A stretch of 64,000 nucleotides of DNA from Candidatus Iainarchaeum sp. GTDB taxonomy: Archaea > Micrarchaeota > Micrarchaeia > Anstonellales > Bilamarchaeaceae. Shown piece after piece: positions 2,289 to 63,275 of this stretch (within the stretch, counting starts at the first letter, position 1; each line of letters starts with the position of its first letter). The stretch is taken from assembly GCA_028714535.1 (NCBI GenBank), contig JAQTME010000001.1:1270-65269 (forward strand), read 5' to 3'. The notes below the pieces were generated by a model. That model had not been told where the DNA came from. It made no database searches and worked only from the letters and a program-made list of their open reading frames with translations. Made by a program: the position numbers and the translations under genes.

Positions 2289-3463
2289 TCCCGTTTTACC
2301 CTGCTGACGCTCGTCTCCATTATGAACGCGAACTGCTCCTCGTCAAGGCCGTAGAAGTCCATGACCGCCTCGGGCTGCGCCTTCCCGTATTCCTTGATGA
2401 GCGGCAGGTAGTAGAGCGCCGCCTTCCTTCCCGTGTGCAGCCTTGCGCCCAGTTTCGCACCGATGGCCTTGAGCATGGCCCTGCGCTCCATGCTCCTGGA
2501 CATGTTCCTGAGGTAGGATGGGAAATTGTACCTGGTGAACTTGTGGTACGGCCGCGCCTTCGCAAGCGCGACGCCCGCCGTCGCAAGGTCTATGGAATAT
2601 TTCAGCAGCTGCCATTTCTGCTTCTTTATCCTGCCGTCGAAGATATCAGCCTTGGAAAGCGAATCGTAGGCAGCCGCTATGTCCGCCACGGTCTCGTATT
2701 CGAGCGGGATGTTCTCGTCTATCCACAGCTTTATGAAATCATAATCTATGTCGCCGCGCACGGCTTCCTTGGCCGCCGCGTAGGTCTCCGCCTTGAGTAT
2801 GTCCCTGACGATGGTGAAGATGTCCTTTTCAGTGTCGCGCACGGTAGGCGTGAGCGCCTGGAGGTCGTTCAGCGCGGCGCGCACGTCGCCGTGGGAGTTG
2901 TCTGCCATGGCGCCTATGGCTTCGGCCGAGAGCCCGAGCTTCTCATTGGAAGATATGTGCGCCAGCAGCTTCCGTATGGAGACCTTGCTAACACGCTTCA
3001 ACTCGACGATTTCGCATTCGTTGCGTATGGGCGCCAGCTTCTTGTCCCAGACATCAGTGGCAGTGACTATGGTCGGGCAGGGCGATTCGCGCAGGAAGTC
3101 GGTGATGGCGCCTGAGCCGCCGCTGTCCGCGCGCCCGGCCAATACGTCCGCGTCGTCGATGAGCACGAGCCTGCCGCGGCCGAAAAGCCCGCCTGCCAGC
3201 GACGCGCCGTGCGTTATCCGTTCAACACGCTCGCGGTTGCGCAATTCGCTCGCATTGAGCTCCAGCAGGTCCAAATCGAACTCCTGCTTTATGGCATATG
3301 CCATGGTCGTCTTGCCTATGCCGGGGGGACCCCAGAGGAGGAGGGGCTTCCTTTTCTTGCCGCTGAGCCACTGGAGAACCCAGTTTTTTACATGGGCGAC
3401 CCGGTCCTCGTTGCCCAGCAGCTCATCGAGCTTTTTCGGCGCGTATTTGACAGTATAAAGCAT
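2285..3463 (-). CDS. rfcL: replication factor C large subunit
   Basis: N-terminal KYAPKKLDELLGNED followed by the AAA+ Walker A LLLWGPPGIGKTT and the LVLIDDAD box. The C-terminal region is typical of archaeal RFC-L. Its stop overlaps the hef stop by 4 nt. Confidence 0.85.
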   Translation of the reverse strand: MLYTVKYAPKKLDELLGNEDRVAHVKNWVLQWLSGKKRKPLLLWGPPGIGKTTMAYAIKQEFDLDLLELNASELRNRERVERITHGASLAGGLFGRGRLVLIDDADVLAGRADSGGSGAITDFLRESPCPTIVTATDVWDKKLAPIRNECEIVELKRVSKVSIRKLLAHISSNEKLGLSAEAIGAMADNSHGDVRAALNDLQALTPTVRDTEKDIFTIVRDILKAETYAAAKEAVRGDIDYDFIKLWIDENIPLEYETVADIAAAYDSLSKADIFDGRIKKQKWQLLKYSIDLATAGVALAKARPYHKFTRYNFPSYLRNMSRSMERRAMLKAIGAKLGARLHTGRKAALYYLPLIKEYGKAQPEAVMDFYGLDEEQFAFIMETSVSRVKRD

Positions 3464-5314
3464 CTACACCCTCGCTTTCACGGCTTCTTTCCAGAAGTCC
3501 CCGACCTCGTCTTCCGGACGTTCCGACACAACGGTTTTCTCGTCCTTGTTTAAAATCCATGAGTACTTGCCCCACTGGAAGCGCTCGTCCATGTAGACCA
3601 CGGCGACGCGGTCGCCGTCCTTCCTGCGGGCCCGGCCTGCGGCCTGGAGCGCCTTTATGGTGCCGGGGTAGAGGTAGCCGTAGTCCCAGCCCCTGCCGAA
3701 CTTCCCGTCGTAATAGTCTATGAGCGCGCGCTTTTCCACGTCCATCTCGTCTAGGGCGACGCCGACGATGACAACCGTCTTTATCTCGCCAGCGCAATAA
3801 TCAACGCCCTCTGCCAGGGAGCCGCCCTGCACCCCGCACAGCACCTGCCCGCCGTGCCTGAACTCCTTGAGCATCTGCCTGACCTCGTGCGGCTTCATGC
3901 CGCTCTTCTGCACCAGCATGCTGCGCGGGCGCATGAGCGGAAGCACAGCGTCCATGACGACGTAGGACGGGAAGAAGATGGCGGTGCCGCCAGGCGTCGC
4001 TTCTATCACAGAGTCGAGCTTGCCTGCTATGGCTGCATAGCCCTCATCGTCGCGCCTGGAATACTTGGTCGTCACATCAGGCGTCACGATGTTGACTATA
4101 CTCTCGGTATTGAACGGCGAAGGGTAGCTCTTCATGGTGGTCCGCTGCGGGTCGAGGCCGAGCACGTCCCTGTGCATCTGCAACGGCAGCAGCGTGCCGC
4201 TCATGAGCACGGACGACGCGCATGCGTTCAGCGCTTTTGTGGCCGGCGAAGGGTCCAGCAGCCGCTTGGACAGGTAGAAATTGCCGTTCTTCCTCTTGAG
4301 CACGCGCACGGATTCCTCCTCACCCTCGCCCCAGGCGGTGAGGAAGCCGGCGAGATTCAGGCAGGCGCTCTTCTTCCCTGTCTTCTCCACGATATCGAAG
4401 CCGGCCTCTGCCAGCTTCGGCACTATCTCGTCGACCGTCAGGCCGAAGCCTGCGATGAAATCGTGCAGCGAATACGGGGAGACCAGGCGCTCCTCGTCCC
4501 TGGCGAGTATCCGCTCTGCCCAGAGCGCGAACACCTCGTCCACGGGGCCTGCGTCCATGCCGAGGGAGCGCATCTCCTTCCTCACGCGCATGAACGTGAA
4601 GCCGTTCACGGAGCTGGACATGCTCTCGCGCACCCGGGAGGCAAGGTTGTGTGCCTCGTCTATTATCACGATTGAGTCCTCGAGCCGCTTTTTCACCTTG
4701 GCGAGGAACACGTCGCGTATTTTCGGCACCATGAGGTGGTAGTAATCCGCGATTATCACGTTGGACGACTCGCCAAGCTTCAGCAGCCATTCATATGGGC
4801 AGCAGCCGTGCTGCATGCCGAGTGCGATGAGCTCGTCGTGGCTCTTTGCTGCGCCATAGCCTCCCATGGCTTTCCTGAACACCAGCTCCGCCTTCAGCTC
4901 GCCAAGGCGGCCGTAGCCCCGCGCGTTGCCGTAGAACTGGCACTCCTGCTTCTTCCGCCTCCGCGCGCACGCGTTCTGGAAGCTTTCGTTGTCGAGCTGG
5001 GAGAGCGACCTGTCTATGCAGCAGTGGAACCTGCCCACCATGTCCACCGCGCGGAGCTGGAGCGAATGCCTTTCTGCGATGCCGCGCACCACGTCGAGCG
5101 CGATGCGATGCTGCGATATCTTGGGCGTGAGGAAGAAGACTGTCTGCTTCCGCTCCAGGGCGCTGGTCACCGCCGCTGAGAGGGCCGCATCCGACTTCCC
5201 GCTGCCTGTCGGGGCCTGGGCCATGAAGTTCCTGCCGTCGCATATGGCAGAGTATATGTCGTCCATCAGCGCCTTCTGGTGGGGGCGTACATGGTCATGG
5301 CGGAAGTAGGGCAT
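3464..5314 (-). CDS. xpd: XPD/Rad3-family 5'-3' DNA helicase with Fe-S cluster
   Basis: Walker A AQAPTGSGKS, a DEAH box (IIDEAHNL) and Fe-S domain cysteines (CC...C...CCPYEW). It is 616 aa and sits directly downstream of rfcL with no spacer. Confidence 0.85.
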   Translation of the reverse strand: MPYFRHDHVRPHQKALMDDIYSAICDGRNFMAQAPTGSGKSDAALSAAVTSALERKQTVFFLTPKISQHRIALDVVRGIAERHSLQLRAVDMVGRFHCCIDRSLSQLDNESFQNACARRRKKQECQFYGNARGYGRLGELKAELVFRKAMGGYGAAKSHDELIALGMQHGCCPYEWLLKLGESSNVIIADYYHLMVPKIRDVFLAKVKKRLEDSIVIIDEAHNLASRVRESMSSSVNGFTFMRVRKEMRSLGMDAGPVDEVFALWAERILARDEERLVSPYSLHDFIAGFGLTVDEIVPKLAEAGFDIVEKTGKKSACLNLAGFLTAWGEGEEESVRVLKRKNGNFYLSKRLLDPSPATKALNACASSVLMSGTLLPLQMHRDVLGLDPQRTTMKSYPSPFNTESIVNIVTPDVTTKYSRRDDEGYAAIAGKLDSVIEATPGGTAIFFPSYVVMDAVLPLMRPRSMLVQKSGMKPHEVRQMLKEFRHGGQVLCGVQGGSLAEGVDYCAGEIKTVVIVGVALDEMDVEKRALIDYYDGKFGRGWDYGYLYPGTIKALQAAGRARRKDGDRVAVVYMDERFQWGKYSWILNKDEKTVVSERPEDEVGDFWKEAVKARV

Positions 5315-10470: not shown

Positions 10471-10500
10471 CTTGATAATCCTTTTTTTCGTTAAACCTGC

Positions 10501-10773
10501 ATGAGATACGCGATATTGTTATTCGGACTGATGCTTGTTGCGGGCGGGTTCGCCGCCAGCTCGGATGCGAGCGCGCAATTGGAGCAGTGCGTCAGGAACT
10601 GCTGCAGCCAGGCAGATGGCGCATGGACAGGCGACGACTGCGTAAACTCCGATGAGGAGCTGTACAACCAGTGCTCAACCAACTGCATCAGCAGCGCATT
10701 CGGAAGCGTGGGCTGCTGCGGCCCTGCGGTTTTGCTGGCAGGCGTTGCGGCGCTGGCAGTGCTCAGGAGATGA
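10501..10773 (+). CDS. small secreted Cys-rich protein with a C-terminal hydrophobic anchor
   Basis: 90 aa with a signal peptide, 8 Cys, and a C-terminal GPAVLLAGVAALAVLRR segment (hydrophobic helix plus basic tail). Confidence 0.4.
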   Translation: MRYAILLFGLMLVAGGFAASSDASAQLEQCVRNCCSQADGAWTGDDCVNSDEELYNQCSTNCISSAFGSVGCCGPAVLLAGVAALAVLRR

Positions 10774-10774
10774 A

Positions 10775-10928
10775 TGGGCCCACCCAGGATCGAACTGGGG
10801 ATCTTCGCTGTGTAAGAGCGACGTCTTAACCATTGTCCGGCCGTCCGACTTGTTCCGCCCTCATGGCTTTTTCCAGGGTTTTTGCCATGAGAGAAACAGA
10901 AGTCAAAAAGCCTCTCGACTATGGGCCC
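10775..10928 (-). tRNA. tRNA-Val (anticodon TAC) with a putative ~87-nt non-canonical intron in the D-arm
   Basis: On the minus strand: T-arm CCCAG-TTCGATC-CTGGG, 3' acceptor strand TGGGCCC plus discriminator A (no encoded CCA), anticodon stem TCGCT/AGCGA with loop CTTACAC, and D-loop/3' D-stem AATGGTTA-AGAC. The matching 5' acceptor strand GGGCCCA followed by TA and the 5' D-stem GTCG is found only at 10916-10928, about 87 nt upstream of the D-loop. Confidence 0.5.
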
Positions 10929-19624: not shown

Positions 19625-20194
19625 TCACTCGAACTTGACCTTCACTGCCGCCTTCTCGGCCTGCGGGACCTCGAAATACGGCTTCACCTTGAAGCCGAGC
19701 ATGCCGGCGATGATGTTGCTCGGGAACATCTGGATGGCGTTGTCGAAGTCAAGCACCGAGTCGTTGTAGGCGGTGCGGACGTAGGATATCTTGTTCTCTG
19801 TGCCTGCCAGCTCGTCCTGGAGCATCTTGAAGTTCTCGTTGGCCTTGAGGTTCGGGTAGTTCTCAGCGACCGCGAATATGGACTTGAGCGCCTGGCTGAG
19901 CTTGTTGTTCGCCTGCGCCTTCTCCTCCACGCTGCCGCTCACGAGCTGGGCGCGGAGCTTTGTGATGTCGGTGAGCGTGCCCCTCTCGTGCTTCATGTAG
20001 CCCTTGACCGTCTCGATGAGGTTGGGGATGAGGTCGTACCTCCTCTTGAGCTGTACGTCTATCTGCGCCCACATGTTGTCCACGCGGTTCCTCAGCGTGA
20101 TGAGCCTGTTATAGGTAAGCGCCACGTATGCCAGCACGAGCAGCACCAGGCCGCCTATGCACAATCCAGCTACCAATGCGAGTTCAAGAGCCAT
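19625..20194 (-). CDS. lemA: LemA family protein
   Basis: N-terminal TM helix plus the conserved LemA region (LTYNRLITLRNRVDNMWAQIDVQLKRRYDLIPNL). Confidence 0.8.
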   Translation of the reverse strand: MALELALVAGLCIGGLVLLVLAYVALTYNRLITLRNRVDNMWAQIDVQLKRRYDLIPNLIETVKGYMKHERGTLTDITKLRAQLVSGSVEEKAQANNKLSQALKSIFAVAENYPNLKANENFKMLQDELAGTENKISYVRTAYNDSVLDFDNAIQMFPSNIIAGMLGFKVKPYFEVPQAEKAAVKVKFE

Positions 20195-21395: not shown

Positions 21396-23057
21396 CTATT
21401 TCGGCGCTGCGACGCCATAGGAGGCGATACGGAGCGCCAACGCCGCCAGGGGCGGAGGCACCATGGCGCGGCGCAGGATTTTGCCCAGCAGCGACACGTC
21501 CTCGCGCCTGAGGCATTTCATCAGGAGCGCAAGCAGGAAAAAGACGCCTGCGACAAACGCTGCCAGGAGGGCCAGGAACGAGAGGTAGACCGCCTTGTCG
21601 GCGATGGAGAACTGGACGCTGTCGGAAGGCTGCCAGAATATGCCGAGGGCGGAGAATGCGTGCGCCTTCAGCAGGGCCATGACAATGAAGGCTGCCGCGG
21701 CAGCAGCAAGCAGCTTCAGCGTCTCCGCAGGGAACTTGAAGCCGTACAGGACCCGGCCGTAATGGCGGTAGAGCAGCAGGAGCAGCGTGAAGCTGAGCAG
21801 GGACGCCAGGGCCGCGCCCTCCATGCCGAAGCCGGGGATGAGCAGGATGCAGAGGATGACGTTGGCTACCGCAGCCGCGGCTGAAATCCTGAGCTCAAGG
21901 CCCACCTGCCTGAGGGCTGCCAGCGCCATGGAGACCAGGTAGGCGAAGCCGTTCATCATTATGCCTAGGGTGAATATGAACATCACGAGCCAGCCTGCCT
22001 GGTAGGCCTGGCCATAGAAGGCGCCGAGCAGCTCGGACGGGAGCGAGATCATGACAACGGTGACCGGAAGTATGATGAACAGGAGCCAGCGCTGGGCCGT
22101 GTCCATGGTGGAGCGCATCTGGTCCGTGTCGTCCTTGCCTGCCAGCCTCGACATCACAGGCAGGAACACGGAGCCTATGGCTGCGGGGAACATCACGAGC
22201 ACGGTGGCCAGCGTCGTCGATATCGAATAGACTGCGATGAGCTGGGTGGCCTGCGAAGGCGGGGCCAGGTAGCCCAGCAGGATGCGGTCCGAGGAGACCA
22301 GCAGCAGGTTCAGCGAGTAGATGGCGGTGAGCATGAGGCCGAACGGCACCACTTCGGTGAGCACGAAATGGAAGGACGGCATCGCCTCCTTCCCCACTGG
22401 CAGCGAACGCTCCTTGCGGGAGACTAGTAAGAAGCCCACGAGGACCACGAGCAGGTGGGTTATCAGGAAGGGCATCGCGATTGTCATGAAGGAAGCGCCG
22501 AAAAAGAAGAAGAATGCGATGGTGAGCACGAACTTGAGCAGGTTGTCCATGTTCAGGAGGAACTGCATCTGCTTTATGTCGCTGAGGCCGTTGAGGAACG
22601 AGTAGTTTATCCTGAATATGTTGTTCAGCAGCAGGAACAGAGAGACTATGCGCAGCGCGCCCGGCAGGAGCGGGTTCTGGTACATGGAGCCCAGCGTGTC
22701 GGCGCACAGCCAGATGGCGCCCACGAAAAGCACGCTCAGGAGCGTAACGGTGAGGTAGGCGTACTTGAGCAGGGCCCGGACCTTCCCGTGCTCGCCCCTG
22801 CCCTCGTAATAAGGCGTATACCTTATGAGCGAGGCCGGCAGCCCGAGGTCGCTGATTACTATGAAGGTGGTGACGACTGCCAATGACAGGTAGAACAGCC
22901 CGATGTCGTCCTGGGACGCCATCCTGGCTATGATTACGACGTAGAGGAAGGAGATGAACTTGTAGAACAGCCCGCCGAAAAGGCTCCAGAAGCTGCCCCT
23001 TGCCACTTCCTTGGAATGGGCGGACACGTCTTCCGCAACCATGTCTTCGCCGTCCAT
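21396..23057 (-). CDS. MOP-superfamily oligosaccharide flippase (Wzx-like polysaccharide biosynthesis protein)
   Basis: About 12-14 TM helices, which is typical Wzx/MATE-like topology. It is the first gene of the glycosylation island. I took the ATG at 23057 as the start. Confidence 0.7.
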   Translation of the reverse strand: MDGEDMVAEDVSAHSKEVARGSFWSLFGGLFYKFISFLYVVIIARMASQDDIGLFYLSLAVVTTFIVISDLGLPASLIRYTPYYEGRGEHGKVRALLKYAYLTVTLLSVLFVGAIWLCADTLGSMYQNPLLPGALRIVSLFLLLNNIFRINYSFLNGLSDIKQMQFLLNMDNLLKFVLTIAFFFFFGASFMTIAMPFLITHLLVVLVGFLLVSRKERSLPVGKEAMPSFHFVLTEVVPFGLMLTAIYSLNLLLVSSDRILLGYLAPPSQATQLIAVYSISTTLATVLVMFPAAIGSVFLPVMSRLAGKDDTDQMRSTMDTAQRWLLFIILPVTVVMISLPSELLGAFYGQAYQAGWLVMFIFTLGIMMNGFAYLVSMALAALRQVGLELRISAAAAVANVILCILLIPGFGMEGAALASLLSFTLLLLLYRHYGRVLYGFKFPAETLKLLAAAAAAFIVMALLKAHAFSALGIFWQPSDSVQFSIADKAVYLSFLALLAAFVAGVFFLLALLMKCLRREDVSLLGKILRRAMVPPPLAALALRIASYGVAAPK

Positions 23058-43771: not shown

Positions 43772-44815
43772 GTGATACCGGGGATTGCCAGGAGCATCGT
43801 GATAGGCATGAACATTTTCGACAGGTTGGGGGAAACGCGGGCGAACATAGCATTTGCAAGAGAATACACGCTGGAGCTGCAAGAGCAGGGCAGACGCCTC
43901 ATGAAGACGGGTAAGACAATAAGCCGGATTTGCGAGGTTTGCGGCTCGCCGCAACAAGAAGATAGGTTCATGGCCCCGGTATATGATTTTGTTGCATGCA
44001 GAAACTGCGGTTTCGTGTATGCGAAGAGCATACTTGGCGAGGAGGCCATGGATAAATTTTACAGGCATGATGAGGTAGCACAGCGTTCATGGAGCAAACA
44101 GCTTGAGAGGCTTGAGGCCAATCCGAATACGACCCAGTATCCCGGGCTCGTCACGAGGATAATGAAGAATGTCCGGGGCAGGGAAAGGGCGCTGGATTTC
44201 GGCTGTGGCCAGGGGGAGTTTTTGTACGAACTCAAAGGGCACTTTCGGAAGGTCATTGGCGTGGAACTCGGCAAGGAGCAAGCCGAAACCGCCAGGAGAA
44301 AATTCGGGGTGGAAGTGCTCGAGGGCGATATAGGCAGCCTTGGACTGCAAAAGGAGTCGTTTGACCTGATATGCATGAACCAGGTGATTGAGCACCTGCC
44401 GCGTGTGAATGATGTGCTGAAGAAACTTGTGCAGCTCCTCAAGCCAGAGGGAGTCCTGGCAATCACTTGCCCGAACCTCGATTCCTGGAGCATGCGGATA
44501 TTCAGGGAAAAACACTCGCACGTCAATACACAGGTTCACGTCAATATGTTCAGCCCAAAAACCATCGAAAAGCTTGCGCTAAGGCACGGCCTGAAAAAAA
44601 GGCAGGTTGGAACGTATATGCTCGATACGACGCTAATCGACCTTGCTTATCTCATATTCGCGAAAAAGAGCTTCATGCACCGGTGCAATTTCAACATTCT
44701 CCTCTATCCGCCTTCATGGCTGCTGGAGAAGGCAGTGAATAAGGCGAACGAGATTTCCAATAACGTCCTCATGGGCAGCTCAGGCTCGTATATAGAAGCG
44801 ATTTTCATGAAATGA
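43772..44815 (+). CDS. SAM-dependent methyltransferase with an N-terminal zinc-ribbon
   Basis: CEVCGS...CRNCGF zinc ribbon followed by methyltransferase motif I LDFGCGQG. The start is uncertain; Met residues lie at about 43772, 43808 and 43903. Confidence 0.65.
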   Translation: MIPGIARSIVIGMNIFDRLGETRANIAFAREYTLELQEQGRRLMKTGKTISRICEVCGSPQQEDRFMAPVYDFVACRNCGFVYAKSILGEEAMDKFYRHDEVAQRSWSKQLERLEANPNTTQYPGLVTRIMKNVRGRERALDFGCGQGEFLYELKGHFRKVIGVELGKEQAETARRKFGVEVLEGDIGSLGLQKESFDLICMNQVIEHLPRVNDVLKKLVQLLKPEGVLAITCPNLDSWSMRIFREKHSHVNTQVHVNMFSPKTIEKLALRHGLKKRQVGTYMLDTTLIDLAYLIFAKKSFMHRCNFNILLYPPSWLLEKAVNKANEISNNVLMGSSGSYIEAIFMK

Positions 44816-44877
44816 ACTGCTGGATTGTCAGGCGGTAGGGTTAAACTGCACGACCGCTAGAAGTTCACAAATTTACT

Positions 44878-44933
44878 GAAGTTCTGTTTTAACTAGAAAT
44901 TATGTCTCTTGAAAAATAAGGAAACAGAACTTT
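44878..44933. terminator. 12-bp stem / 32-nt loop hairpin in the AT-rich region between two convergent genes
   Basis: gaagttctgttt at 44878-44889 pairs with aaacagaacttt at 44922-44933 (11 Watson-Crick pairs plus one G-U). T-runs are nearby. Confidence 0.3.
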
Positions 44934-45036
44934 GGTAGAGATGTTGGTGTGGACCCTATTTGTTTCATCTGTGGGGTTTTCACACTGAGCAAGTGAGTTC
45001 CGCTTGGATCTCAAACTCATTGCCAATGGCCATTCT

Positions 45037-48000
45037 TTATGTATTTTGATAATAGAGTTTGTAGTTGAACGCGCTGATGGAACTGATCCAGCTACTCCGG
45101 TCCGTTCTATAAACATTGGTTCCGTCACGTTGCCAATAGACGCCAACATTGTTTCCTGAAGGCTCGTTGGTATTCAACACAATCCAATAAGTTCCTGCAT
45201 TCAGAGAGAAAGGCGTGAAGTTGAAATCAGCATATGCAACTGAATCGGGAACTGATGAGGTCGTTATGTTGGCGTACGCACTCTCGTTCACAAGAGTTCC
45301 TGAAGGAGCGCCGCTTGCATCTGTTTCTATTCTCAGGTTGAGGTTGCCTGAAGGCGAACCTACTTTCTGGAGGGCCAGTTGAACTCGTGTTATGTTGTTT
45401 GTTCCACTGGTCGTTATCTGAGTGGCCCGTTCAGCCAGAGCACCTTCAGACCAACGCCCGATTATTGCGTCAAGTATTGTTCCTGTAGTATAGCTCAGGC
45501 CAATATAATCAGTGGAGGCAGTGTAGTTCACTTCCGGCCCGAGGGCTACTGATTGTGTCTGATTGAGCGCATGGCCGCATTTGAGCTGCCCTAACGCAAG
45601 TTTATCCACCCCTTTGCCGTATTCTCCTACTGAAAAGCCGAAAGCAGTAATGTTTGCGAGAGAGTAGGACTGGTTGGCACCTCGTTCCGTGCCATTAACC
45701 AGCAGGAGTTCCGTGCGGTTGTTTATGTAGATTGCCTGGACTATCGTCAGATTTCCCTGCGCCATAGTCACGCCGGTATAAGGGTGATAAGAACCGCCAG
45801 TGTTTATGCTCCAACTCATTGCTCCGGTAGTGTATTGATTCTGCCCGTCGAGCATATTGTAGAAACCAAGTGGATAGTTGCCGCAGATGCCATTGGTGAC
45901 GTTTCCTATTCCATAACTCGCTCCGCAGAACTGGGCATAGTATGGATTGGACATCGGTATTATCGCCGCCTCGCATTCCCAGGTGGTCTTGTTGTTCGAA
46001 GGGAGCGCATAGCCGAGGTCTGCGGAAGTTGGGTAAGTGCTGGAGGTTGTATCGTTCAGGTAGAATAGGGTGTCTCCAAGGAAGGAGTATGGATACGTAT
46101 TCGTCATCACTCCAGCTTGCTGATTTGCAAAAGCGCCGTTAATTCCATTCGAACTGTTCTGATAGACTTCATATACCTGTGTCGGATCGGATACGTAGGG
46201 AGCGCCCGGATTTCGGTAGCAAAGTCTTGCCTGGAGTGCGCCATCAGTCATGTTTGCACAGATAAGGGAGGAGTTGTTGTCCGCAAGCGGATAGAGGTCG
46301 GTAAGGTTGGCATGGCAGTATTGAACGAAGCTCGGGTAGGCCGAGGAGTTGTCTGATTTGACTATGCGAAGGTCAGTACAATTGAGGTTGTGATGGACGG
46401 ACGAATTGGCGATGGCACAAAGAGCGTATGACGCATTGCCTAGGTTTGTGGCGCCAGTTGTATTTAAATCTCTGCAACTCAGCCAATTTTCACCCAACCA
46501 CAAAGATGAGTTGGGGTTATATTGAAGGATACCGAAGTTGCTGAACGAGGCGAGATTTGAAAGCGAGAGAGTATTTCCTACCGTATCGGGCGTGCTGTTC
46601 AAATCGGTCCAAGTTCCATTGTATTTGAAAAGGCGGAATTGGGATTCGTTATAACTGGATAAATCGCTGTCAACCCAGTTAAAAGACACATGGTCTATAG
46701 AGGGAGAACCGGTGGTGGTTGAGACATAGATGAAATTCTGGTTGAATGAAGTAGACCCAGAGGGTAAAGCTGAGGCATTGGCTGCCCAGTTTATTGAATA
46801 CGATTCGCTTGTTGCACTATCATTTACCGAAAGGTTGGTGAAATTCTGGTAGTTGCCCGCGGGATTGTCAAAAATGATAGCGGAAAGGTTGATGGTTATT
46901 GGGGAAGCATTGGCATTTATCTGGAAGTCGGCGGTGTTATTGTAGTAGTGGTCACTAATAAAGTAGTTATTGCCATCGCCAATCAAAACCCCTGCTTTGT
47001 GATTATTGTATAACGTATTGCCGATGAGAATATTGCCAGAGCTAGGCCCGACTTCATAGCTATTACTGGTAACAAAATAGATTCCATCGAGATTATCGTA
47101 TAGGGTGTTATTTTGGATAGTACTATTGAAAACAGAATCGAGCCAGATGCTTCCATTATCCCAATGATAACCGGGGTTGGCAGTATTGTTGTAGGCAATA
47201 TTGTCAATGATACTGATGTTGTAATTGTTGTAGAAATAAAACCCCCACCAGCAGTTGAAGACGGTGTTATTTATGAACGAGTTGTTATACCCCTGATTGG
47301 AGTTTATACCAACGGTGTGGACGCACTCGGTACCACTAGCATAGTTGGGGCAGGTGGTATTAGGCTTGGAGTTATTCGTGTCATAAATCACACAATTTTT
47401 GATTGTAACATTACTAAATAGACTGCCGCGATGAAATTGAATGCCCCACGCATCAATGTCATTATAGCTAGGGGGTGTCGAAACACCGCTGAGACTTATA
47501 TTGTGGCCATTACAATCAAGCACAAGATTGGAGGAGTTAATCAGAAAACAGGCAAATCCCCAATCCGTTGCCGGTGCTCCAATGTCCCATAATGGCGCTC
47601 CTGTGACATTGCCCAGAAGCATTGCATTTCCATTCACATATCCGCATCCGTAATAAGGAATCGAACGATTGGTCTCATTGGTAACTAAGTAACCGATACC
47701 AGAAATGTTTGCATAGCCTTTGATTGAATAAGTATGATTGAGGACAGTCAGGCTATCTGGGATCGAATAGTTGCATGATAGATTGTCCGGGGCAAGTGAA
47801 CACGAATAGTTCACACCGTCTACCTCGATTTGACTGCCAATGCTCAGGGCTACGCTCGCACCCATGTTGATGTTTATTGGGAAGGTGAAGTAGTTGGTAT
47901 CGTTGAGGGGGGTTGGGGAAATGAAATAAACGTTTGGGGAAGATATGACCGTGAACGTCACCAGCGACGAATTTTGGTAAGTTCCATTCCAGCAGGTTGC

Positions 48001-49272
48001 ATTGAGGACGTATACATCAGGGGAGAAGGTCGTATTAGAAAAGGAAAAGAGGGTGTTGTTAGTTACATCTTGATTCGCAAGTATAAGTCCGGCTCCGGTC
48101 GAAACGTTCAGGAAGTAACTGAGGTTGTCACCACTACAAGTCACGTTTATGTCTAGGGGGGTTATTGCGTAGGTAGAATTGGTTGGACTTGAAGTGTAAA
48201 CATTTAGGGTACCAGCTACGTCAGGGATTGTATAGTTCACCTCAACTCCGAGCGTCACGTTGAAGCTCTGATTGAGTGTATTGAAGCACTTGACCTGTCC
48301 AACTGCCATTCTGTCCACATTTGTTCCAGACGAACCAGCGCTGAACCCCACTGCGGTTATGTTGGCGGGGGAGTATGCAGTGATGTTGTATCCAACTTCA
48401 GAACCATTTATCAGCTCGTTGTGGGTGCGATTGAGCATAAAGGTGGTCTGAACAATTGTAAGGTTGCCGATGTAGAATTTCGGGTTGAGTCTTGAGTATG
48501 TAACGTACGAACCGCCCGGGTTGTAGAGCCAGCTCATAACTCCTTTTCCAATTTGGTTTTGCCCATCAAGGAAACCAAAAAAGCCCACGGGGTAGTTGCC
48601 GCACACACCGTTGGTGACATTTCCAGTAGCGTAGCTAGCTCCACAGAATTGGAAGTAGTAGGGCTGGGTGATTGGAATGACCGCGACCTCGCATCCTATC
48701 GTACTCTTGTTGTCGGTGTTCAGCTTCCAGCCGAGCGATGCTTGTGAAGCACCGGTGTCATTCAGATAGAACAATTTCGCGCCAAGGAAGGAGTATTGTG
48801 GGTATGCGTTCGTCATGGTACCGCTCATGAAATTTGCAAAGGCACCCTGGGTGGTCCCATCTGCTGCGTCCTTGTAGATCATGAACACTGTGCCATTATC
48901 TGATACGTTTGCTGCGTCAAGGTTGCGGTAGCACAGTCTTGCCTGGAGCGCACCGTCGGTCATGTTCGCGCAAATGAGGGACGAGTTGCTGTCCGCTAGT
49001 GGATAAAGGTTGGTTAGATTGGCATGGCAGTATTGGACGAAGCTCGGGTAGGCCGAGGAATTGTCCGATTTTATGATACGGAGGTCTGAGCAGTTGAGAT
49101 TGTACTGGACGGACGAGTTGATGATGGCACACAGAGTGTAGGGTGCATTGCCACTATTTGATGCTCCAGACGTGTTCAAGTCACGACAGGAAGTCCAGCT
49201 GGGGCCATACCAGTCTGCAGAAGCAAAAGTCATCATAAAAAGGATGATAATGAGACCGAGTTTGTTTCGCAT
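45037..49272 (-). CDS. giant secreted surface protein (1411 aa from the signal-peptide Met): two copies of a ~330-aa Cys-containing domain, a central right-handed parallel beta-helix (PbH1-like) region, and very many N-x-S/T sequons
   Basis: Signal peptide MRNKLGLIIILFMMTFASA. Beta-helix repeats such as NNTLYDNLDGIYF and GNTLYNNHKAGVLIG. More than 100 N-x-S/T sequons. GC content is about 40-45% against about 60% for the rest of the window, with AAT/TAT/ATT-type codons. Confidence 0.8.
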   Translation of the reverse strand: MRNKLGLIIILFMMTFASADWYGPSWTSCRDLNTSGASNSGNAPYTLCAIINSSVQYNLNCSDLRIIKSDNSSAYPSFVQYCHANLTNLYPLADSNSSLICANMTDGALQARLCYRNLDAANVSDNGTVFMIYKDAADGTTQGAFANFMSGTMTNAYPQYSFLGAKLFYLNDTGASQASLGWKLNTDNKSTIGCEVAVIPITQPYYFQFCGASYATGNVTNGVCGNYPVGFFGFLDGQNQIGKGVMSWLYNPGGSYVTYSRLNPKFYIGNLTIVQTTFMLNRTHNELINGSEVGYNITAYSPANITAVGFSAGSSGTNVDRMAVGQVKCFNTLNQSFNVTLGVEVNYTIPDVAGTLNVYTSSPTNSTYAITPLDINVTCSGDNLSYFLNVSTGAGLILANQDVTNNTLFSFSNTTFSPDVYVLNATCWNGTYQNSSLVTFTVISSPNVYFISPTPLNDTNYFTFPININMGASVALSIGSQIEVDGVNYSCSLAPDNLSCNYSIPDSLTVLNHTYSIKGYANISGIGYLVTNETNRSIPYYGCGYVNGNAMLLGNVTGAPLWDIGAPATDWGFACFLINSSNLVLDCNGHNISLSGVSTPPSYNDIDAWGIQFHRGSLFSNVTIKNCVIYDTNNSKPNTTCPNYASGTECVHTVGINSNQGYNNSFINNTVFNCWWGFYFYNNYNISIIDNIAYNNTANPGYHWDNGSIWLDSVFNSTIQNNTLYDNLDGIYFVTSNSYEVGPSSGNILIGNTLYNNHKAGVLIGDGNNYFISDHYYNNTADFQINANASPITINLSAIIFDNPAGNYQNFTNLSVNDSATSESYSINWAANASALPSGSTSFNQNFIYVSTTTGSPSIDHVSFNWVDSDLSSYNESQFRLFKYNGTWTDLNSTPDTVGNTLSLSNLASFSNFGILQYNPNSSLWLGENWLSCRDLNTTGATNLGNASYALCAIANSSVHHNLNCTDLRIVKSDNSSAYPSFVQYCHANLTDLYPLADNNSSLICANMTDGALQARLCYRNPGAPYVSDPTQVYEVYQNSSNGINGAFANQQAGVMTNTYPYSFLGDTLFYLNDTTSSTYPTSADLGYALPSNNKTTWECEAAIIPMSNPYYAQFCGASYGIGNVTNGICGNYPLGFYNMLDGQNQYTTGAMSWSINTGGSYHPYTGVTMAQGNLTIVQAIYINNRTELLLVNGTERGANQSYSLANITAFGFSVGEYGKGVDKLALGQLKCGHALNQTQSVALGPEVNYTASTDYIGLSYTTGTILDAIIGRWSEGALAERATQITTSGTNNITRVQLALQKVGSPSGNLNLRIETDASGAPSGTLVNESAYANITTSSVPDSVAYADFNFTPFSLNAGTYWIVLNTNEPSGNNVGVYWQRDGTNVYRTDRSSWISSISAFNYKLYYQNT
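45520..46503 (-). repeat. intragenic tandem duplication, copy 2 (aa ~933-1260 of the giant protein)
   Basis: SCRDLNTTGATN...ICANMTDGALQARLCYRN...EVNYT is repeated near the N-terminus. Nucleotide stretches of 100-150 nt are roughly 85-90% identical between copies (for example 46340-46440 against 49040-49150). Confidence 0.75.
48229..49212 (-). repeat. intragenic tandem duplication, copy 1 (aa ~30-357)
   Basis: See copy 2. The two copies are direct repeats separated by about 2.7 kb. Confidence 0.75.
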
Positions 49273-49300
49273 TGCCCGCACCTCCGAACAAAACCACATG

Positions 49301-49323
49301 GTGAGGGTCTAGTTTGTCCTCAC
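49301..49323. promoter_or_regulatory. inverted repeat GTGAGG-N11-CCTCAC in the 5' leader of the giant gene, next to a shared divergent TATA box
   Basis: A perfect 6-bp inverted repeat at 49301-49306 and 49318-49323. The TATA box gtatataatt lies at about 49346-49355, between the divergent genes. Confidence 0.3.
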
Positions 49324-49411
49324 ATGCATTCAACAGGCCTGCACAGTATATAATTCTTGCCTTACAGGAATCAAAAGAGAAACTTGTTACTGGCGGGAGT
49401 TGTAGATTGCC

Positions 49412-51259
49412 ATGATAGTGATGCTCGCGTATTTTCTTGTTGTGATGCTCGCCATGGGATTCGCAGCCTGGCGGCTTCTCGGCGCTCAAGAGGATGACGA
49501 CTGCACGAAGGCATTCATCTGGCTGGCGACAGGCATCGTGCTTTTTGTGATGGCGACCGCCGTTCTCGGATTCATCGGTCAGGCGAACTGGGCCGCATAC
49601 CTCGTTATCGCCGCTGCGCTTCTTGGCGCCGCATACTGGAAAGACAGCAAGGCCGGCATCAGATACAATCTAAGGCTGCCTGTGCTGGGCCTGGAATGGA
49701 AGCTGGTCTGCCTCATCTTTCTTGTCCATCTCTATGTGTACGCGAGCGGTGCGTTCTCCTACCCATGGCTCGAGGACGACGACCCGTGGGAGCATGCCGC
49801 GGCAGCGCATTACGTGTCGCTGTACGGCAGCTACATCCAGCCCACTGGCCTGCCCCTCCACTACCTCGTGCCATACACGCCATTCTACGACGTGCTCCTG
49901 GGAGTGCTTTTCCAGCTCGACAATTCATCGATGCAGGCTGTGCTGAAATTCTTCAATGCCCTGCTGGTCAGCCTCGCCATACCGTTGTTCTTCTGCTGGG
50001 CGAAGGAAAGGCTCGGCGGCCGCACGGCCCTCTGGGCCACGTTCGCGCTCGCTGTGCTGCCCTGCTTCATGAGCCATTTCATATGGTCGCAGACGCTCGC
50101 GCTCATGCTCGTGTTCCCTGCATTATATTTCATCGAGAAGTTCTCCAAGGCTGATGCCCACAAGAAGGCTTTCGGGGTTCTAGCGGCCTTTGCGGTCGCA
50201 TCCGTATTCATGACGCAACCCTCCACCGGAGCCATGTTCGGCGGCCTGGCGGTTGTCTACATAGCCGCGCTCGCGCTACCGGACATCATTACATCGCGCA
50301 CGCTCATTCTCTCTAAGCTGAAGCCGCCCGCAATCGCGCTCGGCGCAGGCCTCCTCATCTCAATCGTGCTTTTCTGGGGCCCGGTTTTCGCCATGTATCC
50401 TGTCGAGCAGGTGTTCGCGCAGAACAGCCTGAGCGCAAAATTGCTCACAGACGTCCAGGGGGATACGGGCGGCGGGCTTGTTTACAGCATAAGCGACTTC
50501 ATCGACGCACCGTCCTCATCAAAGATGGACCAGCCGATAGGCTTCGGCCCGGCGATGGCCCTGTTGATGATTATCGGTGTGATTGCGGCCATATACGCGC
50601 TGCGTTCCCAGGAAAACAGGGATTCCGCAGCCGTCATGCTGCTGTGGCTTGCCTACGGCCTCATCGGCACAGAAGGCAACCTGCTGCCTGTGAAGCTCGT
50701 GCCCCACCGCTTCTGGGTTTTCCTTGCCATACCGGTCGCGATCCTGGCCGGATACGGCGCAGTCAAGGCGCTGGAGTACATAGAGAAGAACCGCAAGGGC
50801 ATGGAACTGATAGCCAAGGCGCTTATAGTGGCTGCGCTGCTGTTCACGTCAGCGTATCCGAAGGGCGTGGTGGAGACGTCCCAATGGCCGCCGGGCGCCA
50901 AGTGGGTTTCAGATGCGCAGATTTCAGGCTACGTCGGCCTCAAGGGCCTGCCGGCGAACACGCCGGTATTCGGCTTCTGTTTCGGCGAGGAGTTCGCAGA
51001 CGGCATGGACAAGGCGGGCTACGCCTGGATAAAGGAAGTGCGCGATTACAAAACGCGCTCCATCACCGACAGCATGGACGGCAACTACGCATTCCTGAAA
51101 AAATACGGCTACCAATACGCTGTGATCGACCAGAGCTGCCTGAATGCATTCACCGCAGACCAGATAAACGCCAAGCTCAACGGATTGGGCGGCGACGGCA
51201 GATTCACTGTGGCGGAGCAATATTCGAACCAGGCGTTCATCACGCTCAAGGTGAATTAG
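49412..51259 (+). CDS. GT-C-fold polytopic membrane glycosyltransferase-like protein (not a canonical AglB/STT3)
   Basis: About 13 TM helices plus a C-terminal soluble domain of about 150 aa. An acidic first-loop motif YPWLEDDDPWEH resembles the GT-C catalytic loop. No WWDYG motif is present. Confidence 0.55.
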   Translation: MIVMLAYFLVVMLAMGFAAWRLLGAQEDDDCTKAFIWLATGIVLFVMATAVLGFIGQANWAAYLVIAAALLGAAYWKDSKAGIRYNLRLPVLGLEWKLVCLIFLVHLYVYASGAFSYPWLEDDDPWEHAAAAHYVSLYGSYIQPTGLPLHYLVPYTPFYDVLLGVLFQLDNSSMQAVLKFFNALLVSLAIPLFFCWAKERLGGRTALWATFALAVLPCFMSHFIWSQTLALMLVFPALYFIEKFSKADAHKKAFGVLAAFAVASVFMTQPSTGAMFGGLAVVYIAALALPDIITSRTLILSKLKPPAIALGAGLLISIVLFWGPVFAMYPVEQVFAQNSLSAKLLTDVQGDTGGGLVYSISDFIDAPSSSKMDQPIGFGPAMALLMIIGVIAAIYALRSQENRDSAAVMLLWLAYGLIGTEGNLLPVKLVPHRFWVFLAIPVAILAGYGAVKALEYIEKNRKGMELIAKALIVAALLFTSAYPKGVVETSQWPPGAKWVSDAQISGYVGLKGLPANTPVFGFCFGEEFADGMDKAGYAWIKEVRDYKTRSITDSMDGNYAFLKKYGYQYAVIDQSCLNAFTADQINAKLNGLGGDGRFTVAEQYSNQAFITLKVN

Positions 51260-60069: not shown

Positions 60070-61353
60070 CTATTTCAGCAGCCAAAGGTTCACGAATGAA
60101 AGGAGGAAGAGCAGCGCGAGAAGCCCCAGGACCAGTTCCATGGACGCCATATAGTCCTGCTGGAAGGCAGCGCTCGGCCTGGACGGCACCGATGATGCGG
60201 GTTCGCCGGTCTCTGCTGTAGCCCCGTTGTAGGAAAGCGCCCGGCTCAATATGACCTCGTCGTGGCGTTCGTCGTCCAGCGCGGGGCCCTTGACGGCTAT
60301 TGAGAGCACGTTCTGGCCCAGCCCTTCATAGCCGTAACTGAACTCGTACGTGTAGGCGAACGAGTAGTTCCGGCTTTCCAGTTGCGTCGGCGTGGCGAGG
60401 CCGATGCGCTCGGACCAGCCATCAGGGCTTGCCGGGTATGAGATTATCTCCTGGATACCGTAGGGGCCTGTGCGCGTGTCGAACGTGCGCAATGTGAGGT
60501 TGCGTGTGCGGTTGCCATTGAGGTATATGTCGGCATGGTAGAGCGGGCCCTGGGAGAGGATGATGGTGTCGAAGCGGTTGTCGCGGAACCACTGCTCGCG
60601 CAGCACTGGCGCGCGCAGGAAGTAGAGCTTGTTGGCGCCGAAGACGGTGAAGTCTCGGCTCGTGGAAAACGAGACGTTCTTGGTGAAATAGTGGTAGTTG
60701 TCGGCGCAGCCGGCGTCCTCGCGGTCGTTGATGTAATAGATGAAACGCATCGTGCCCACGATGCTTGCGTTCAGCAGGTCAGCGCCCGATGAGGTTTTCA
60801 TCTGGGCCAGTATTCCAGGCGGCGTGCTCATACTCAGCGGCAGGATGCTGGAAGTGAACGGCGTGGAATATGTGGCATTCTTGAATGTGAATGCCACGGT
60901 GCCTGTATAGAGCACCTGGGCCAGGAGCTCGTATTCCACGCAGCCGTCCTGGTCGAAATCGCAGCGCTGGGCGCGCGTTGTATCAAGGGAGCCGTCAGGG
61001 TAGAGCGACGAGTAGTTGCAGATGAATTCCGGGCTGCCTGGACTCGCCCACATGTGCCCCTGGCGGGCCCCTTTGGCCACGAGCAGGGAGAGGCCGCTGG
61101 CCGGATACGTCGCATTGTCCAGCATGAGCGACATACCAGCCACGTTCACGCTGGCGTCTACGGGCAGCGGAAGCAAACGGCCATTATTGAACTGAATTTG
61201 GACAGTGGAATGGAGCGCCGTGGCGTCGTCATATCGGTTGTCCAGGAACTGGCCGAGCGCCCCATTGTAATCCATCACGCTTTCGACAGGCGGTTCATAG
61301 AGCTGCGCGGCTGCGAGGCCGATGAGAAGGGCCAGAAGAAGCATCTGCCTCAT
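60070..61353 (-). CDS. secreted protein with signal peptide, C-terminal TM anchor and many sequons
   Basis: N-terminal MRQMLLLALLIGLAAAQ and C-terminal MELVLGLLALLFLLSFVNLWLLK, with about 14 N-x-S/T sites. Confidence 0.55.
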   Translation of the reverse strand: MRQMLLLALLIGLAAAQLYEPPVESVMDYNGALGQFLDNRYDDATALHSTVQIQFNNGRLLPLPVDASVNVAGMSLMLDNATYPASGLSLLVAKGARQGHMWASPGSPEFICNYSSLYPDGSLDTTRAQRCDFDQDGCVEYELLAQVLYTGTVAFTFKNATYSTPFTSSILPLSMSTPPGILAQMKTSSGADLLNASIVGTMRFIYYINDREDAGCADNYHYFTKNVSFSTSRDFTVFGANKLYFLRAPVLREQWFRDNRFDTIILSQGPLYHADIYLNGNRTRNLTLRTFDTRTGPYGIQEIISYPASPDGWSERIGLATPTQLESRNYSFAYTYEFSYGYEGLGQNVLSIAVKGPALDDERHDEVILSRALSYNGATAETGEPASSVPSRPSAAFQQDYMASMELVLGLLALLFLLSFVNLWLLK

Positions 61354-63275
61354 AATGCACCGCCAAGCCGGTCGATGGGGACGAAGACGAGCAGGTCATT
61401 GGCCTGCCTTATCCTGAGCACCGCCCTCTCCGAATCGCTCAGGCGGGCGAGGAGCTGCTTTATTTCGCTCTCGTTGTCCACAACGATTATTGCCTTCTTG
61501 GTGAAATTGTCGCCGAAGAACCCTATCTCGTAATCCTTGGTCACGAACTTGCGGCCAGCCTCCCTGAACTGGACGCCGTTCTCTATGAGCCTTTCCTTTA
61601 TCATGCGCCTGAGGGTGTTCAGCTTCACGTCGCCCTCGCCCTTGGGCTGGTAATATTCGCGGTGCGTCTCGAGCCTGCCGGCCGTGACAAGGCTCTTGAG
61701 TATGCCTTCGACGTTCCCTTCGGTCACATCCGCGCCGTTGGTGATGCGGCGCTTGAGCTCGACCCCGAACTCATGCGGGGTTATGGGCTCGTTTGACAGG
61801 TGGAGGTCCTCCCTGGCGTTTTTGAACGTCTCGAGGGCTTCTGCGGTCGGCACGCGGACCTCCTCGCGTATGTAGGTTGCGCTGTCGCCGACCCTGAGCG
61901 TATACATGGGCTTCTTTGATACGCGCATGCTGAAGTACACCAGGAGCACGATGCCGAGGCCTGGGATGCCGAATTTTATGTAGAAGTCAAGCAGCGGGTC
62001 GGAATTGTTCTCCACTGGGATCTGTATCACTGTTCCGAACAGGTCCATGTTGAACACGTTGGTCCCACGGTCCAGCTTGGCGTTGACTGTCAGCAGCCCG
62101 TCGCTCACGTAGAATTTCCTCTTGGTTGACGAATTGCCCAGCCAAACCAGGGCCTCGGTATCGCTGAGCGGTGCGCCGTCCACGATGACCGAGAAGACAA
62201 AAGTCGTGCCCCTGCGCTCCTGCAGCGCCACCTGCAGGTCGCTCACATGCAGCATGCCGCTGGCGATGGTGCCGGAATTGTCGCTCACGTCGAGCACGTA
62301 TTCGCCGGGCTCGGAGAACTGGAGCTTCTGCAGGAAGACGTTCTCGTCGGTCACCCTCCGCAGCATGTCGCGGCGGACCTCCTTGCCGTCCTTGTTTATT
62401 GAGATGAATGCCGTGCCGTTGGTGCGCTTGAGCGAGAACTCCAGGGTGGATTTCTCCCATGGGAACACGGATGCCGGCTTCGGCGCGAGGACCTTGCGGG
62501 TGGCCGGCACGGGCAGGGTTTGCAGCGGCGCCGAATCGTAGATGCCGTAAAGGCCGTCGAACTCCGCTATGAGGCGCAGGCGCGTGGCATTTGACATGTC
62601 TATGGTTGCGGTCTTCAGGCTGCTGCCGGAAACATGGATCGTGGCGTTGCGTTGCCTGCTGGCCGTATTGAACAGAATGTCCAGGGGTATGGAACGGTCG
62701 CCCTTGTCCAGGAATTCGTCCAGCGTGCTGTTGTAGACCATGATGTGCATGCGCTGGGGCTGCGTGAGCGCGCCGTACCAGTCGTTCTTCTTCATGCCGC
62801 TGCTGAGCAGGAGGTCTGTGGACCCCACGTATACCAGGGTGACGTTGGGATTGTTCTGGTAGAGGTTGAAAAGGACGTAGGAGGGCATGGCGCCTGAAGG
62901 CAGCACATAGATGCCGTTGCTCATCTTCGTGCTGTTGCTCATGGAGACAGTGTAGCCGTATTTCTCCAGCGTCTTCAGCTGGGCGATGAGCTCGGGGAGG
63001 CGCGTGGCCTCGATGGCCTGGCTGTCGTTTATGATGTATATGTCCTTGGATGGCTCTGAATTGTAGCTGAGTATGGTGATGTTGCCGGTGCCGCGGTAGT
63101 TGAAGATAGCGTAGCCGTTGTTGCCTGCCATCCCGGTCTGGAGGACCTGGAACAGGGGCTGGACGCGCTCTTTCTGGGCCTCTGGCACCTGCATCAGAAG
63201 CGCGGCTATGAGCGACACCAGGGCTATGACCAGCAGCACCGCAAACACGCCGAGCAGTATGTATCTCCGTCTCAT
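61350..63275 (-). CDS. bitopic membrane protein with an extracellular sequon-rich domain and a ~190-aa cytoplasmic C-terminal domain
   Basis: TM helices at aa ~7-27 and ~430-450. Its stop overlaps the downstream gene by 4 nt. Confidence 0.55.
   Translation of the reverse strand: MRRRYILLGVFAVLLVIALVSLIAALLMQVPEAQKERVQPLFQVLQTGMAGNNGYAIFNYRGTGNITILSYNSEPSKDIYIINDSQAIEATRLPELIAQLKTLEKYGYTVSMSNSTKMSNGIYVLPSGAMPSYVLFNLYQNNPNVTLVYVGSTDLLLSSGMKKNDWYGALTQPQRMHIMVYNSTLDEFLDKGDRSIPLDILFNTASRQRNATIHVSGSSLKTATIDMSNATRLRLIAEFDGLYGIYDSAPLQTLPVPATRKVLAPKPASVFPWEKSTLEFSLKRTNGTAFISINKDGKEVRRDMLRRVTDENVFLQKLQFSEPGEYVLDVSDNSGTIASGMLHVSDLQVALQERRGTTFVFSVIVDGAPLSDTEALVWLGNSSTKRKFYVSDGLLTVNAKLDRGTNVFNMDLFGTVIQIPVENNSDPLLDFYIKFGIPGLGIVLLVYFSMRVSKKPMYTLRVGDSATYIREEVRVPTAEALETFKNAREDLHLSNEPITPHEFGVELKRRITNGADVTEGNVEGILKSLVTAGRLETHREYYQPKGEGDVKLNTLRRMIKERLIENGVQFREAGRKFVTKDYEIGFFGDNFTKKAIIVVDNESEIKQLLARLSDSERAVLRIRQANDLLVFVPIDRLGGAL

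Follow-up and report, generated by a model that had tools for sequence, protein, structure and literature searches.

[quoted passage not shown] In ARMAN-2 (Ca. Micrarchaeum), 56% of the tRNA genes are disrupted, and the epsilon2 endonuclease of this organism cleaves both strict and relaxed BHB motifs in vitro (PMC3239211). Our comparisons with ARMAN-2 draw on Fujishima et al. (2011; PMC3239211), Hirata et al. (2012; PMC3488258) and PMC12397907; those with the introns of Thermoproteales draw on Sugahara et al. (2008) and Fujishima et al. (2010), to the extent that they are summarised in PMC4033280 and PMC4090602, and those with the canonical 37/38 intron and with split tRNA genes on Marck and Grosjean (2003) and Randau et al. 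(2005), respectively, as cited in PMC4033280.

Here we analyse an interrupted tRNA locus in a 64-kb stretch of DNA (the window, by which we mean the whole stretch). The locus is very probably a functional tRNA-Val(UAC) gene with an 81-nt, protein-spliced archaeal intron at position 15/16, cut by an endonuclease of broad specificity. The first-pass annotation, made from the window alone, had guessed at Thermoproteales or DPANN as the setting of such a gene; the neighbouring genes, the labels of their homologues and 40 related loci all place the window in the DPANN, and more precisely with the Micrarchaeota type.

Results

Layout of the tRNA-Val(UAC) gene

On the minus strand, positions 10928 to 10916 read GGGCCCA-TA-GTCG, and GGGCCCA exactly complements the 3′ acceptor strand (TGGGCCC, followed by discriminator A) of a tRNA 3′ part that also contains an anticodon arm (TCGCT CTTACAC AGCGA) and a T-arm (CCCAG TTCGATC CTGGG). 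Directly 5′ of this 3′ part there is no complementary acceptor strand; both its absence and the distant partner had been seen in the first-pass annotation, and both are confirmed by the sequence. The gene, on the minus strand, consists of a 15-nt 5′ exon, an 81-nt insert and a 58-nt 3′ exon, and the features around it are the following.

10914–10928, minus strand: 5′ exon GGGCCCAUAGUCGAG, tRNA positions 1–15 (GGGCCCA UA GUCG AG), from the sequence and orthologues; from 10928 to 10914 it holds the 5′ acceptor strand, U8 A9, the 5′ D-stem strand and A14 G15
10833–10913, minus strand: intron AGGCUUUUUGACUUCUGUUUCUCUCAUGGCAAAAACCCUGGAAAAAGCCAUGAGGGCGGAACAAGUCGGACGGCCGGACAA, 81 nt, Sprinzl position 15/16; missing from the intronless locus L032, which has identical exons
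10775–10832, minus strand: 3′ exon, tRNA positions 16–73 (UGGUUA AGAC G onward), from the sequence, Rfam and ARAGORN; it holds the anticodon arm, variable loop, T-arm, 3′ acceptor strand and discriminator A, and CCA is not encoded
10812–10814, minus strand: anticodon UAC (Val), from ARAGORN on the spliced product and from the Rfam alignment of the identical L032 gene
10953–10961, minus strand: A/T-rich box AAATAAAAA, positions −33 to −25, inside the last archaemetzincin codons
10939–11472, minus strand: archaemetzincin gene, just upstream of the tRNA

The 3′ exon reads UGGUUAAGACG UCGCU CUUACAC AGCGA AGAUC CCCAG UUCGAUC CUGGG UGGGCCC A. When the exons are joined, ...GUCGAG meets UGGUUAAGAC... 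at the predicted G15–U16 junction, and the result is a 73-nt tRNA with an 8-nt D-loop (AGUGGUUA) that ARAGORN calls tRNA-Val(tac). In precursor numbering the cleavage points, taken from the intronless orthologue, fall between G15 and A16 and between A96 and U97. The junction is placed at 15/16 because the intronless L032 gene is identical to the joined exons, and in the window it is unambiguous, since the first intron base is A and the mature base after G15 is U. In those genes whose intron starts in U, the comparison alone equally permits 16/17, and 15/16 is assigned there from the bulge rule.

These boundaries amend the first-pass annotation. The tRNA 3′ part that it placed at 10775–10840 does hold the anticodon arm, T-arm, acceptor strand and discriminator, but 10833–10840 is intron and not D-loop; its 5′ piece of 13 nt is a 15-nt exon, and its intron of ~87 nt is 81 nt long, both as fixed by the intronless orthologue. 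Taken literally (13-nt 5′ piece, 87 nt removed, joined to position 101 of the pre-tRNA), the earlier boundaries give a product in which ARAGORN calls no tRNA. The site, which had been put at ~13–15 in the D-stem/loop, is indeed a non-canonical one in the D-arm, but the exact position is Sprinzl 15/16, in the D-loop.

The A/T-rich box is likely to be a TATA box, judging by its sequence and position. Across 40 distinct upstream regions the A+T fraction is 0.70–0.82 at −33 to −27, with additional peaks of 0.78 at −37 and −35. The window also encodes other archaeal proteins (TBP, XPD helicase, DUF655, archaemetzincin and glutamine synthetase). Homologues of the archaemetzincin down to ~45% identity are labelled Micrarchaeota or Micrarchaeia wherever their source names them, and the protein itself is 100% identical to an NCBI MAG protein. 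Elsewhere in the window, a low-GC island at 44001–50000 (0.45–0.51, vs ~0.59 in the remainder) contains an ORF of 1420 aa (45037–49299, minus strand) that has matches to right-handed beta-helix and DUF2341 and probably encodes a surface protein, which may have been acquired horizontally. Three long ORFs have no Pfam match at E <= 0.001: 49412–51259 (plus strand, 615 aa), 60070–61353 (minus strand, 427 aa) and 61350–63275 (minus strand, 641 aa).

tRNA finders at the locus

In its default mode ARAGORN reports no tRNA anywhere in the 64-kb window, and the Rfam tRNA model (RF00005) matches the window only at 10775–10839, with 30.3 bits against a threshold of 29 and at the cost of a bad acceptor stem. 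With introns allowed (ARAGORN -i), a check that the first-pass annotation had proposed, an intron-containing tRNA is called at 10775–10928, but it is given as ‘tRNA-Arg (tct)’ i(32,66), i.e., with the wrong identity and an intron of 66 nt. A permissive Rfam scan of the window found no further broken tRNAs, and none of the Rfam scans, permissive ones included, matched an intron family at the insert. A group I intron was discarded, as it needs a ribozyme core of >200 nt and usually sits in the anticodon loop, and the insert is 81 nt in the D-loop; a C/D-box sRNA within the intron was likewise discarded, as inspection by eye showed no consistent C and D boxes and Rfam gave no match. Outside the tRNA gene, two sub-threshold matches to archaeal C/D-box sRNAs, sR28 (21.6 bits, 22047–22097, plus strand) and sR38 (21.5 bits, 19703–19761, plus strand), are well under their gathering scores, overlap long ORFs and probably arise by chance.

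Orthologous loci with and without the intron

When 185,579 species, each represented by one genome, were searched for a 28-nt pattern taken from the 3′ exon, 40 loci were obtained, all from Micrarchaeota-type DPANN species genomes, and the Val anticodon arm is unchanged in every one. Seventeen of the genes are intronless and read GGGCC[C/U][G/A]UAGUCGA[G/A]UGGUUAAGACG; 22 carry an intron of 19–113 nt at the D-loop site 15/16 (by the bulge rule), with the insert placed between A[G/A] and UGGUUA; and one is unreadable (Ns). The 5′ 15-mer of the window is found unaltered in L001–L009, L011, L032 and L045, and the other loci vary only at position 5, 6, 7 or 15. The intronless L032 gene, which lies downstream of an archaemetzincin 54% identical to that of the window, matches the joined exons of the window at 73/73 positions and reaches 68.5 bits against the Rfam tRNA model. 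Relatives carry the same split gene at the same position, and this, together with the 73/73 match, excludes the possibility that the gene is a chance assembly of tRNA-like pieces.

In the contigs that encode the closest archaemetzincins (70–74% identity), L002–L009, the gene order PGM, GlnA, archaemetzincin, split tRNA-Val, DUF655, Rpb4, L21e, TBP is kept, and the exons are identical or nearly so to those of the window, with a single change, G26 to A, in L002. The flanking archaemetzincins of the hosts are 54–81% identical, yet the exons are identical, and it is the insert and the spacers that diverge. The intron is 87–95% identical to that of the window in L002, L003 and L008; in L005–L007 its place is taken by a 55-nt intron with an unrelated interior. 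The window's intron family comprises six genes, and within it acceptor pair 7:66 has changed from A-U to G-C, and three T-stem pairs are altered on both sides. The exons are therefore under purifying selection, with changes that preserve structure, and the insert evolves freely, as is to be found in a functional gene. When all introns were compared by BLAST with the window and 49 loci, only orthologous introns were matched and no second copy was found, and intron transposition was rejected for this reason.

Several of the loci show further rearrangements. The 101-nt intron of L011 (upstream of 6395) equals the 55-nt intron of L005 (3088–3142) plus a 46-nt insertion, which consists of two perfect hairpins and lies inside the first hairpin loop; this pair of sequences suggests that introns at this site grow by insertion of small palindromic pieces. 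In L012 and L044 the promoter region and the first 21 nt of tRNA-Val (GGGCCCGTAGTCGAATGGTTA) are duplicated ~100–130 nt upstream of the complete gene. Unrelated GC-rich sequence follows the duplicate, which may be what is left of an integration or duplication event, or a 5′ fragment gene. The gene departs from the tRNA sequence after the variable loop in L041 and within the T-loop in L028 and L040, which suggests further introns in these three loci, i.e., multi-intron forms of tRNA-Val. At the other end of the gene, a DNA_alkylation repair gene stands between the tRNA 3′ end and the next genes in L002–L009 (in L002 at 3022–3992, before a small Cys-rich ORF), and tblastn finds no trace of it in the 10471–10774 region of the window, so that a gene loss or gain has taken place directly at the 3′ end of the tRNA. 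The small ORF of the window that abuts the tRNA (10501–10773, plus strand) is 79% identical in amino acid sequence to that of L002.

A relaxed BHB motif predicted at the splice junctions

In the canonical geometry the 5′ strand runs through an outer helix, a 4-nt central helix and a bulge made of two exon bases and one intron base; the 3′ strand runs through the inner helix, 4 nt of the central helix and then two intron bases and one exon base. We applied here the junction geometry of the canonical 37/38 case and the anticodon-intron pair, which assigns the following elements.

10916–10919, minus strand: central helix H, 5′ strand, exon G10 U11 C12 G13 (the mature 5′ D-stem strand)
10835–10838, minus strand: central helix H, 3′ strand, intron GGAC, two bases before the 3′ splice site
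10913–10915, minus strand: bulge B1, A14 G15 and, after the 5′ splice site, A16; closed by H and h′
10832–10834, minus strand: B2 position, A95 A96 and, after the 3′ splice site, U97 (tRNA U16); the cut is two bases past H, with no outer-helix closure
10909–10912, minus strand: inner helix h′, 5′ strand GGCU; pair probabilities 0.81–0.84 in the ensemble
10839–10842, minus strand: inner helix h′, 3′ strand GGCC; from covariation and the ensemble

In the window, G10-C94, U11-A93 and C12-G92 of helix H are paired and G13 is mismatched with the opposing G91 (3/4), and h′ is formed by G17-C90, G18-C89, C19-G88 and U20.G87. Among the 26 distinct intron-bearing genes, the base opposite G10 is always C or U and that opposite U11 always A or G; C12 faces G in 24 and G13 faces C in 21. 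The base right before the 3′ cut is A in all 26, and the first base of B2 is A in 23. In an alignment of 22 distinct genes the cells of H and h′ are 88.6% paired (93.2% for H, 84.1% for h′), against 23–51% when the partners are slid by 1–3 columns, and in each of the four h′ pairs both partners vary among genes. Covariation scores 0.544 vs 0.250 in shuffles, with none of 500 shuffles reaching 0.544; such shuffle-based statistics are inflated by the relatedness of the sequences, to which the slid-register control is immune.

An outer helix would need A9:G, U8:G and A7:U, and the adjacent A9:G is unpaired in all six genes examined. The strict hBHBh′ arrangement is consequently lacking, and what is found is the relaxed combination of a central helix, cut sites and at least one flanking helix: as predicted from the sequences, the junction motif is a relaxed BHB of the HBh′, or bulge-helix-loop, class. 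A BHB-compatible structure at the junction, the absence of which the first-pass annotation would have taken as a refutation, does therefore exist, in the relaxed rather than the strict form. In the minimum free energy (MFE) fold of the 154-nt precursor, H (3 bp) and h′ are both formed, the acceptor, anticodon and T arms are retained, and the intron projects as a long, imperfect hairpin from the place of the D-loop. Across intron families the interiors are unrelated and the junction structure is constant.

An inner motif of the intron

The interior of the intron contains a second, strict-looking BHB: a 6-bp helix, a 3-nt bulge, 4 bp (two of them G.U), a 3-nt bulge and a helix of 6 or more bp. 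It would delimit a 41-nt piece at 10853–10893 on the minus strand (precursor 35/36 and 76/77), with flanking helices within 10846–10905. If this motif were also cut, splicing would be nested and the 41-nt piece would be released, either in a two-step removal of the intron or as a small (circular) RNA. We consider this unlikely; it would in any case be compatible with the splicing proposed for the whole intron and would not replace it. The motif is in the correct orientation, with helices of 6, 4 and 6 bp and two 3-nt bulges, its conformer lies 2.5 kcal/mol above the MFE-like one (pair probability ~0.17), an equally good motif appears in only 1.8% of shuffles, and it is kept in L003 and L008. 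However, the carriers are so similar (88–95%) that retention says little, L002, a close relative with 92.6% intron identity, has a weakened form of the motif and no other intron family has it at all, two of the four central pairs are G.U, and the favoured fold has 2-nt bulges in the mirror arrangement.

The 41-nt piece bears a hairpin with a 16-nt A-rich loop (AAAAACCCUGGAAAAA), which L029 and L045 keep almost intact although their introns have diverged in other respects. A 30-nt intron core (AUGGCAAAAACCCUGGAAAAAGCCAUGAGG, window 10859–10888) is identical at 29/30 positions in L029 (4648–4677), the rest of whose intron is diverged; L045 retains the loop of the core with a changed stem, and the closer relative L008 has a more altered loop. 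It is improbable, on present sequences, that these features mark a nested intron or an intron-borne small (circular) RNA and that 15/16 is a hot spot at which unrelated introns have repeatedly been gained and lost in Micrarchaeota; were it so, the turnover of archaeal tRNA introns would be directly traceable at the D-loop site 15/16 of tRNA-Val(UAC).

Alternative interpretations

Between the two options of the first-pass annotation, an intron or a disrupted pseudo-tRNA, the evidence sides with the intron: exon sequence does not vary while the insert diverges or gives way to another, the stems change in compensatory fashion, the junction covaries as a relaxed BHB and L032 is identical to the joined exons. 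It would be very surprising if the gene were a dead pseudogene, into which 81 bp of foreign or mobile DNA had inserted and whose function was left to an intact tRNA-Val copy elsewhere. The copy number is read from one 64-kb window, and the failure of ARAGORN in default mode and of Rfam to call a full tRNA is also what such a reading would lead one to expect; yet it does not account for exons that stay identical in relatives whose neighbouring protein has drifted and whose insert and spacers diverge, for the compensatory changes within those exons, or for the 22 of 39 readable species that carry an insert at this very D-loop site with a covarying junction of BHB type. Moreover, the insert in the window has neither target-site duplication nor terminal repeats, and no second copy in the window or the 49 loci.

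Were the intron real but its junction elsewhere (14/15 to C94, or 15/16 to A95), the product would be a 75-nt tRNA with a 10-nt D-loop, ACAAUGGUUA or AGAAUGGUUA. ARAGORN accepts both products as tRNA-Val(tac), and CAA ahead of UGG is conserved in most genes; however, the 17 intronless orthologues all have GUCGA[G/A]UGGUUA, without additional bases, the conserved C ends helix H and the AA are bulge bases, and no 4-bp helix with symmetric bulges fits the junctions 14/94 and 15/95, so that we regard either product as highly improbable. A strict BHB at 14/94 or 15/95 was itself discarded once the intronless orthologues had fixed the junction. Hardly credible is the tRNA-Arg(UCU) with a 66-nt intron at the anticodon loop that ARAGORN -i proposes, its i(32,66) call for 10775–10928 notwithstanding: the intronless orthologues lack altogether the sequence that supplies its D-arm and anticodon, L005 and other intron families have unrelated sequence there, and the model overlooks a perfect Val anticodon arm that is invariant at all 40 loci. 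Two further arrangements were rejected outright. A second D-arm in the 5′ part of the insert (GUCG AGAGGCUUUU UGAC, junction 27/107) uses sequence that the orthologues are without, and its product is returned by ARAGORN as a malformed tRNA with a 4-base anticodon; trans-spliced split halves do not agree with exons that lie 81 nt apart on the same strand behind one upstream A/T-rich box.

Proposed splicing pathway

The 81-nt intron at 15/16 is probably removed along the following lines, in which expression, the order of events and the enzyme steps are deduced from established archaeal splicing (PMC3239211, PMC4090602, PMC4033280, PMC12397907). The gene is probably transcribed as a single precursor of ~154 nt from the A/T-rich box ~30 nt upstream. 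In this precursor G10–G13 would pair with the intron GGAC rather than with their mature D-stem partner, forming the central helix of the BHB, and a splicing endonuclease of broad specificity would cut both sites: the 5′ site, between G15 and A16, in the closed 3-nt bulge between the central helix and the inner intron helix, and the 3′ site, between A and U16, in an open strand two bases past the central helix. Since H is 3/4 paired and the outer helix is missing, an endonuclease of strict specificity would not be expected to cut. An RtcB-type ligase would join the exons, the intron probably being circularised, and the D-stem, the 5′ strand of which is occupied by helix H, would form only after cutting and ligation to give the 73-nt tRNA.

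Neither an endonuclease nor RtcB or another ligase was found by Pfam among 20 ORFs of the 64-kb window, and M. jannaschii EndA, used as a phmmer query, had no match in the window better than E 0.89; the same query matches 1a79 at E 7.9e-111 and the ARMAN-2 EndA 4fz2 at 2.9e-34. ARMAN-2-like alpha + beta-C endonuclease pieces do occur in public metagenome/MAG data, on unrelated contigs, and two of the pieces are labelled Micrarchaeota or Micrarchaeia. Three of these proteins (P0121, P0126 and P0132) are ~70–76% identical to the ARMAN-2 catalytic unit and are called as alpha + beta-C pieces of 184–204 aa, even on long contigs. In L050 (1879–3055), a 104-aa ORF with a weak tRNA_int_endo_N match lies 300 nt upstream of the endonuclease piece. 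The pieces may be either broken gene calls or parts of a three-unit enzyme that is encoded in pieces.

Discussion

An apparently indispensable decoder, tRNA-Val(UAC), escapes the default tRNA finders in a window where GUA codons are in use (26 of the 356 Val codons in 12 genes), and the misidentification of the gene by ARAGORN -i as tRNA-Arg(UCU) could spread through automated annotation. Because the gene is missed or mislabelled in this way, statements of a ‘missing tRNA’ and annotations for Micrarchaeota MAGs can be wrong. In the 39 readable species the intron is either absent or, at 19–113 nt, always at one D-loop site, its junction fixed and its interior free to vary, and these species offer a clean natural series for studying what an endonuclease of broad specificity needs in its substrate and how archaeal tRNA introns arise, grow and disappear. 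None of this alters the present view of archaeal tRNA splicing.

The intron resembles those of ARMAN-2 in that it occurs in the same group (Micrarchaeota/DPANN), is short, would be spliced by proteins and lies outside 37/38, in that its relaxed motif closes one bulge and leaves the second cut site on an open strand (the hBH/HBh′/BHL class), and in that standard tRNA finders are blind to the gene. It differs from the ARMAN-2 examples that we take from PMC3239211, which are at 59/60 in tRNA-Cys and at 53/54 and 59/60 in tRNA-Pro and measure 13–25 nt, in being 81 nt long and at 15/16, in the D-loop of tRNA-Val(UAC). With the non-canonical and multiple tRNA introns of Thermoproteales and other Crenarchaeota, which are served by an (alpha-beta)2 endonuclease, it shares relaxed HBh′/hBH motifs and a presence that differs between related species; those introns, however, belong to a different phylum, and similar introns recur there in different tRNA genes through transposition, whereas the window and 49 related loci yielded no second copy. 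As with the canonical 37/38 intron and its strict hBHBh′ motif, a 4-bp central helix is built from bases of the 5′ exon and the 3′ end of the intron, and the cuts fall after the second base of each 3-nt position; unlike it, the intron described here occupies a D-loop site, lacks the outer helix and uses the D-stem strand for its central helix. The split tRNAs of Nanoarchaeum equitans and some Crenarchaeota also have a tRNA body in pieces joined at a BHB-like structure, but here a single promoter-like box precedes both pieces, which share a strand and are separated by 81 nt, and the interruption is a cis intron. New here are the site 15/16 in tRNA-Val(UAC), although the ARMAN-2 list of Fujishima et al. 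(2011) may already include it, the spread of the 15/16 intron across Micrarchaeota, its presence or absence between close relatives, and the wide range of lengths that it takes at one site.
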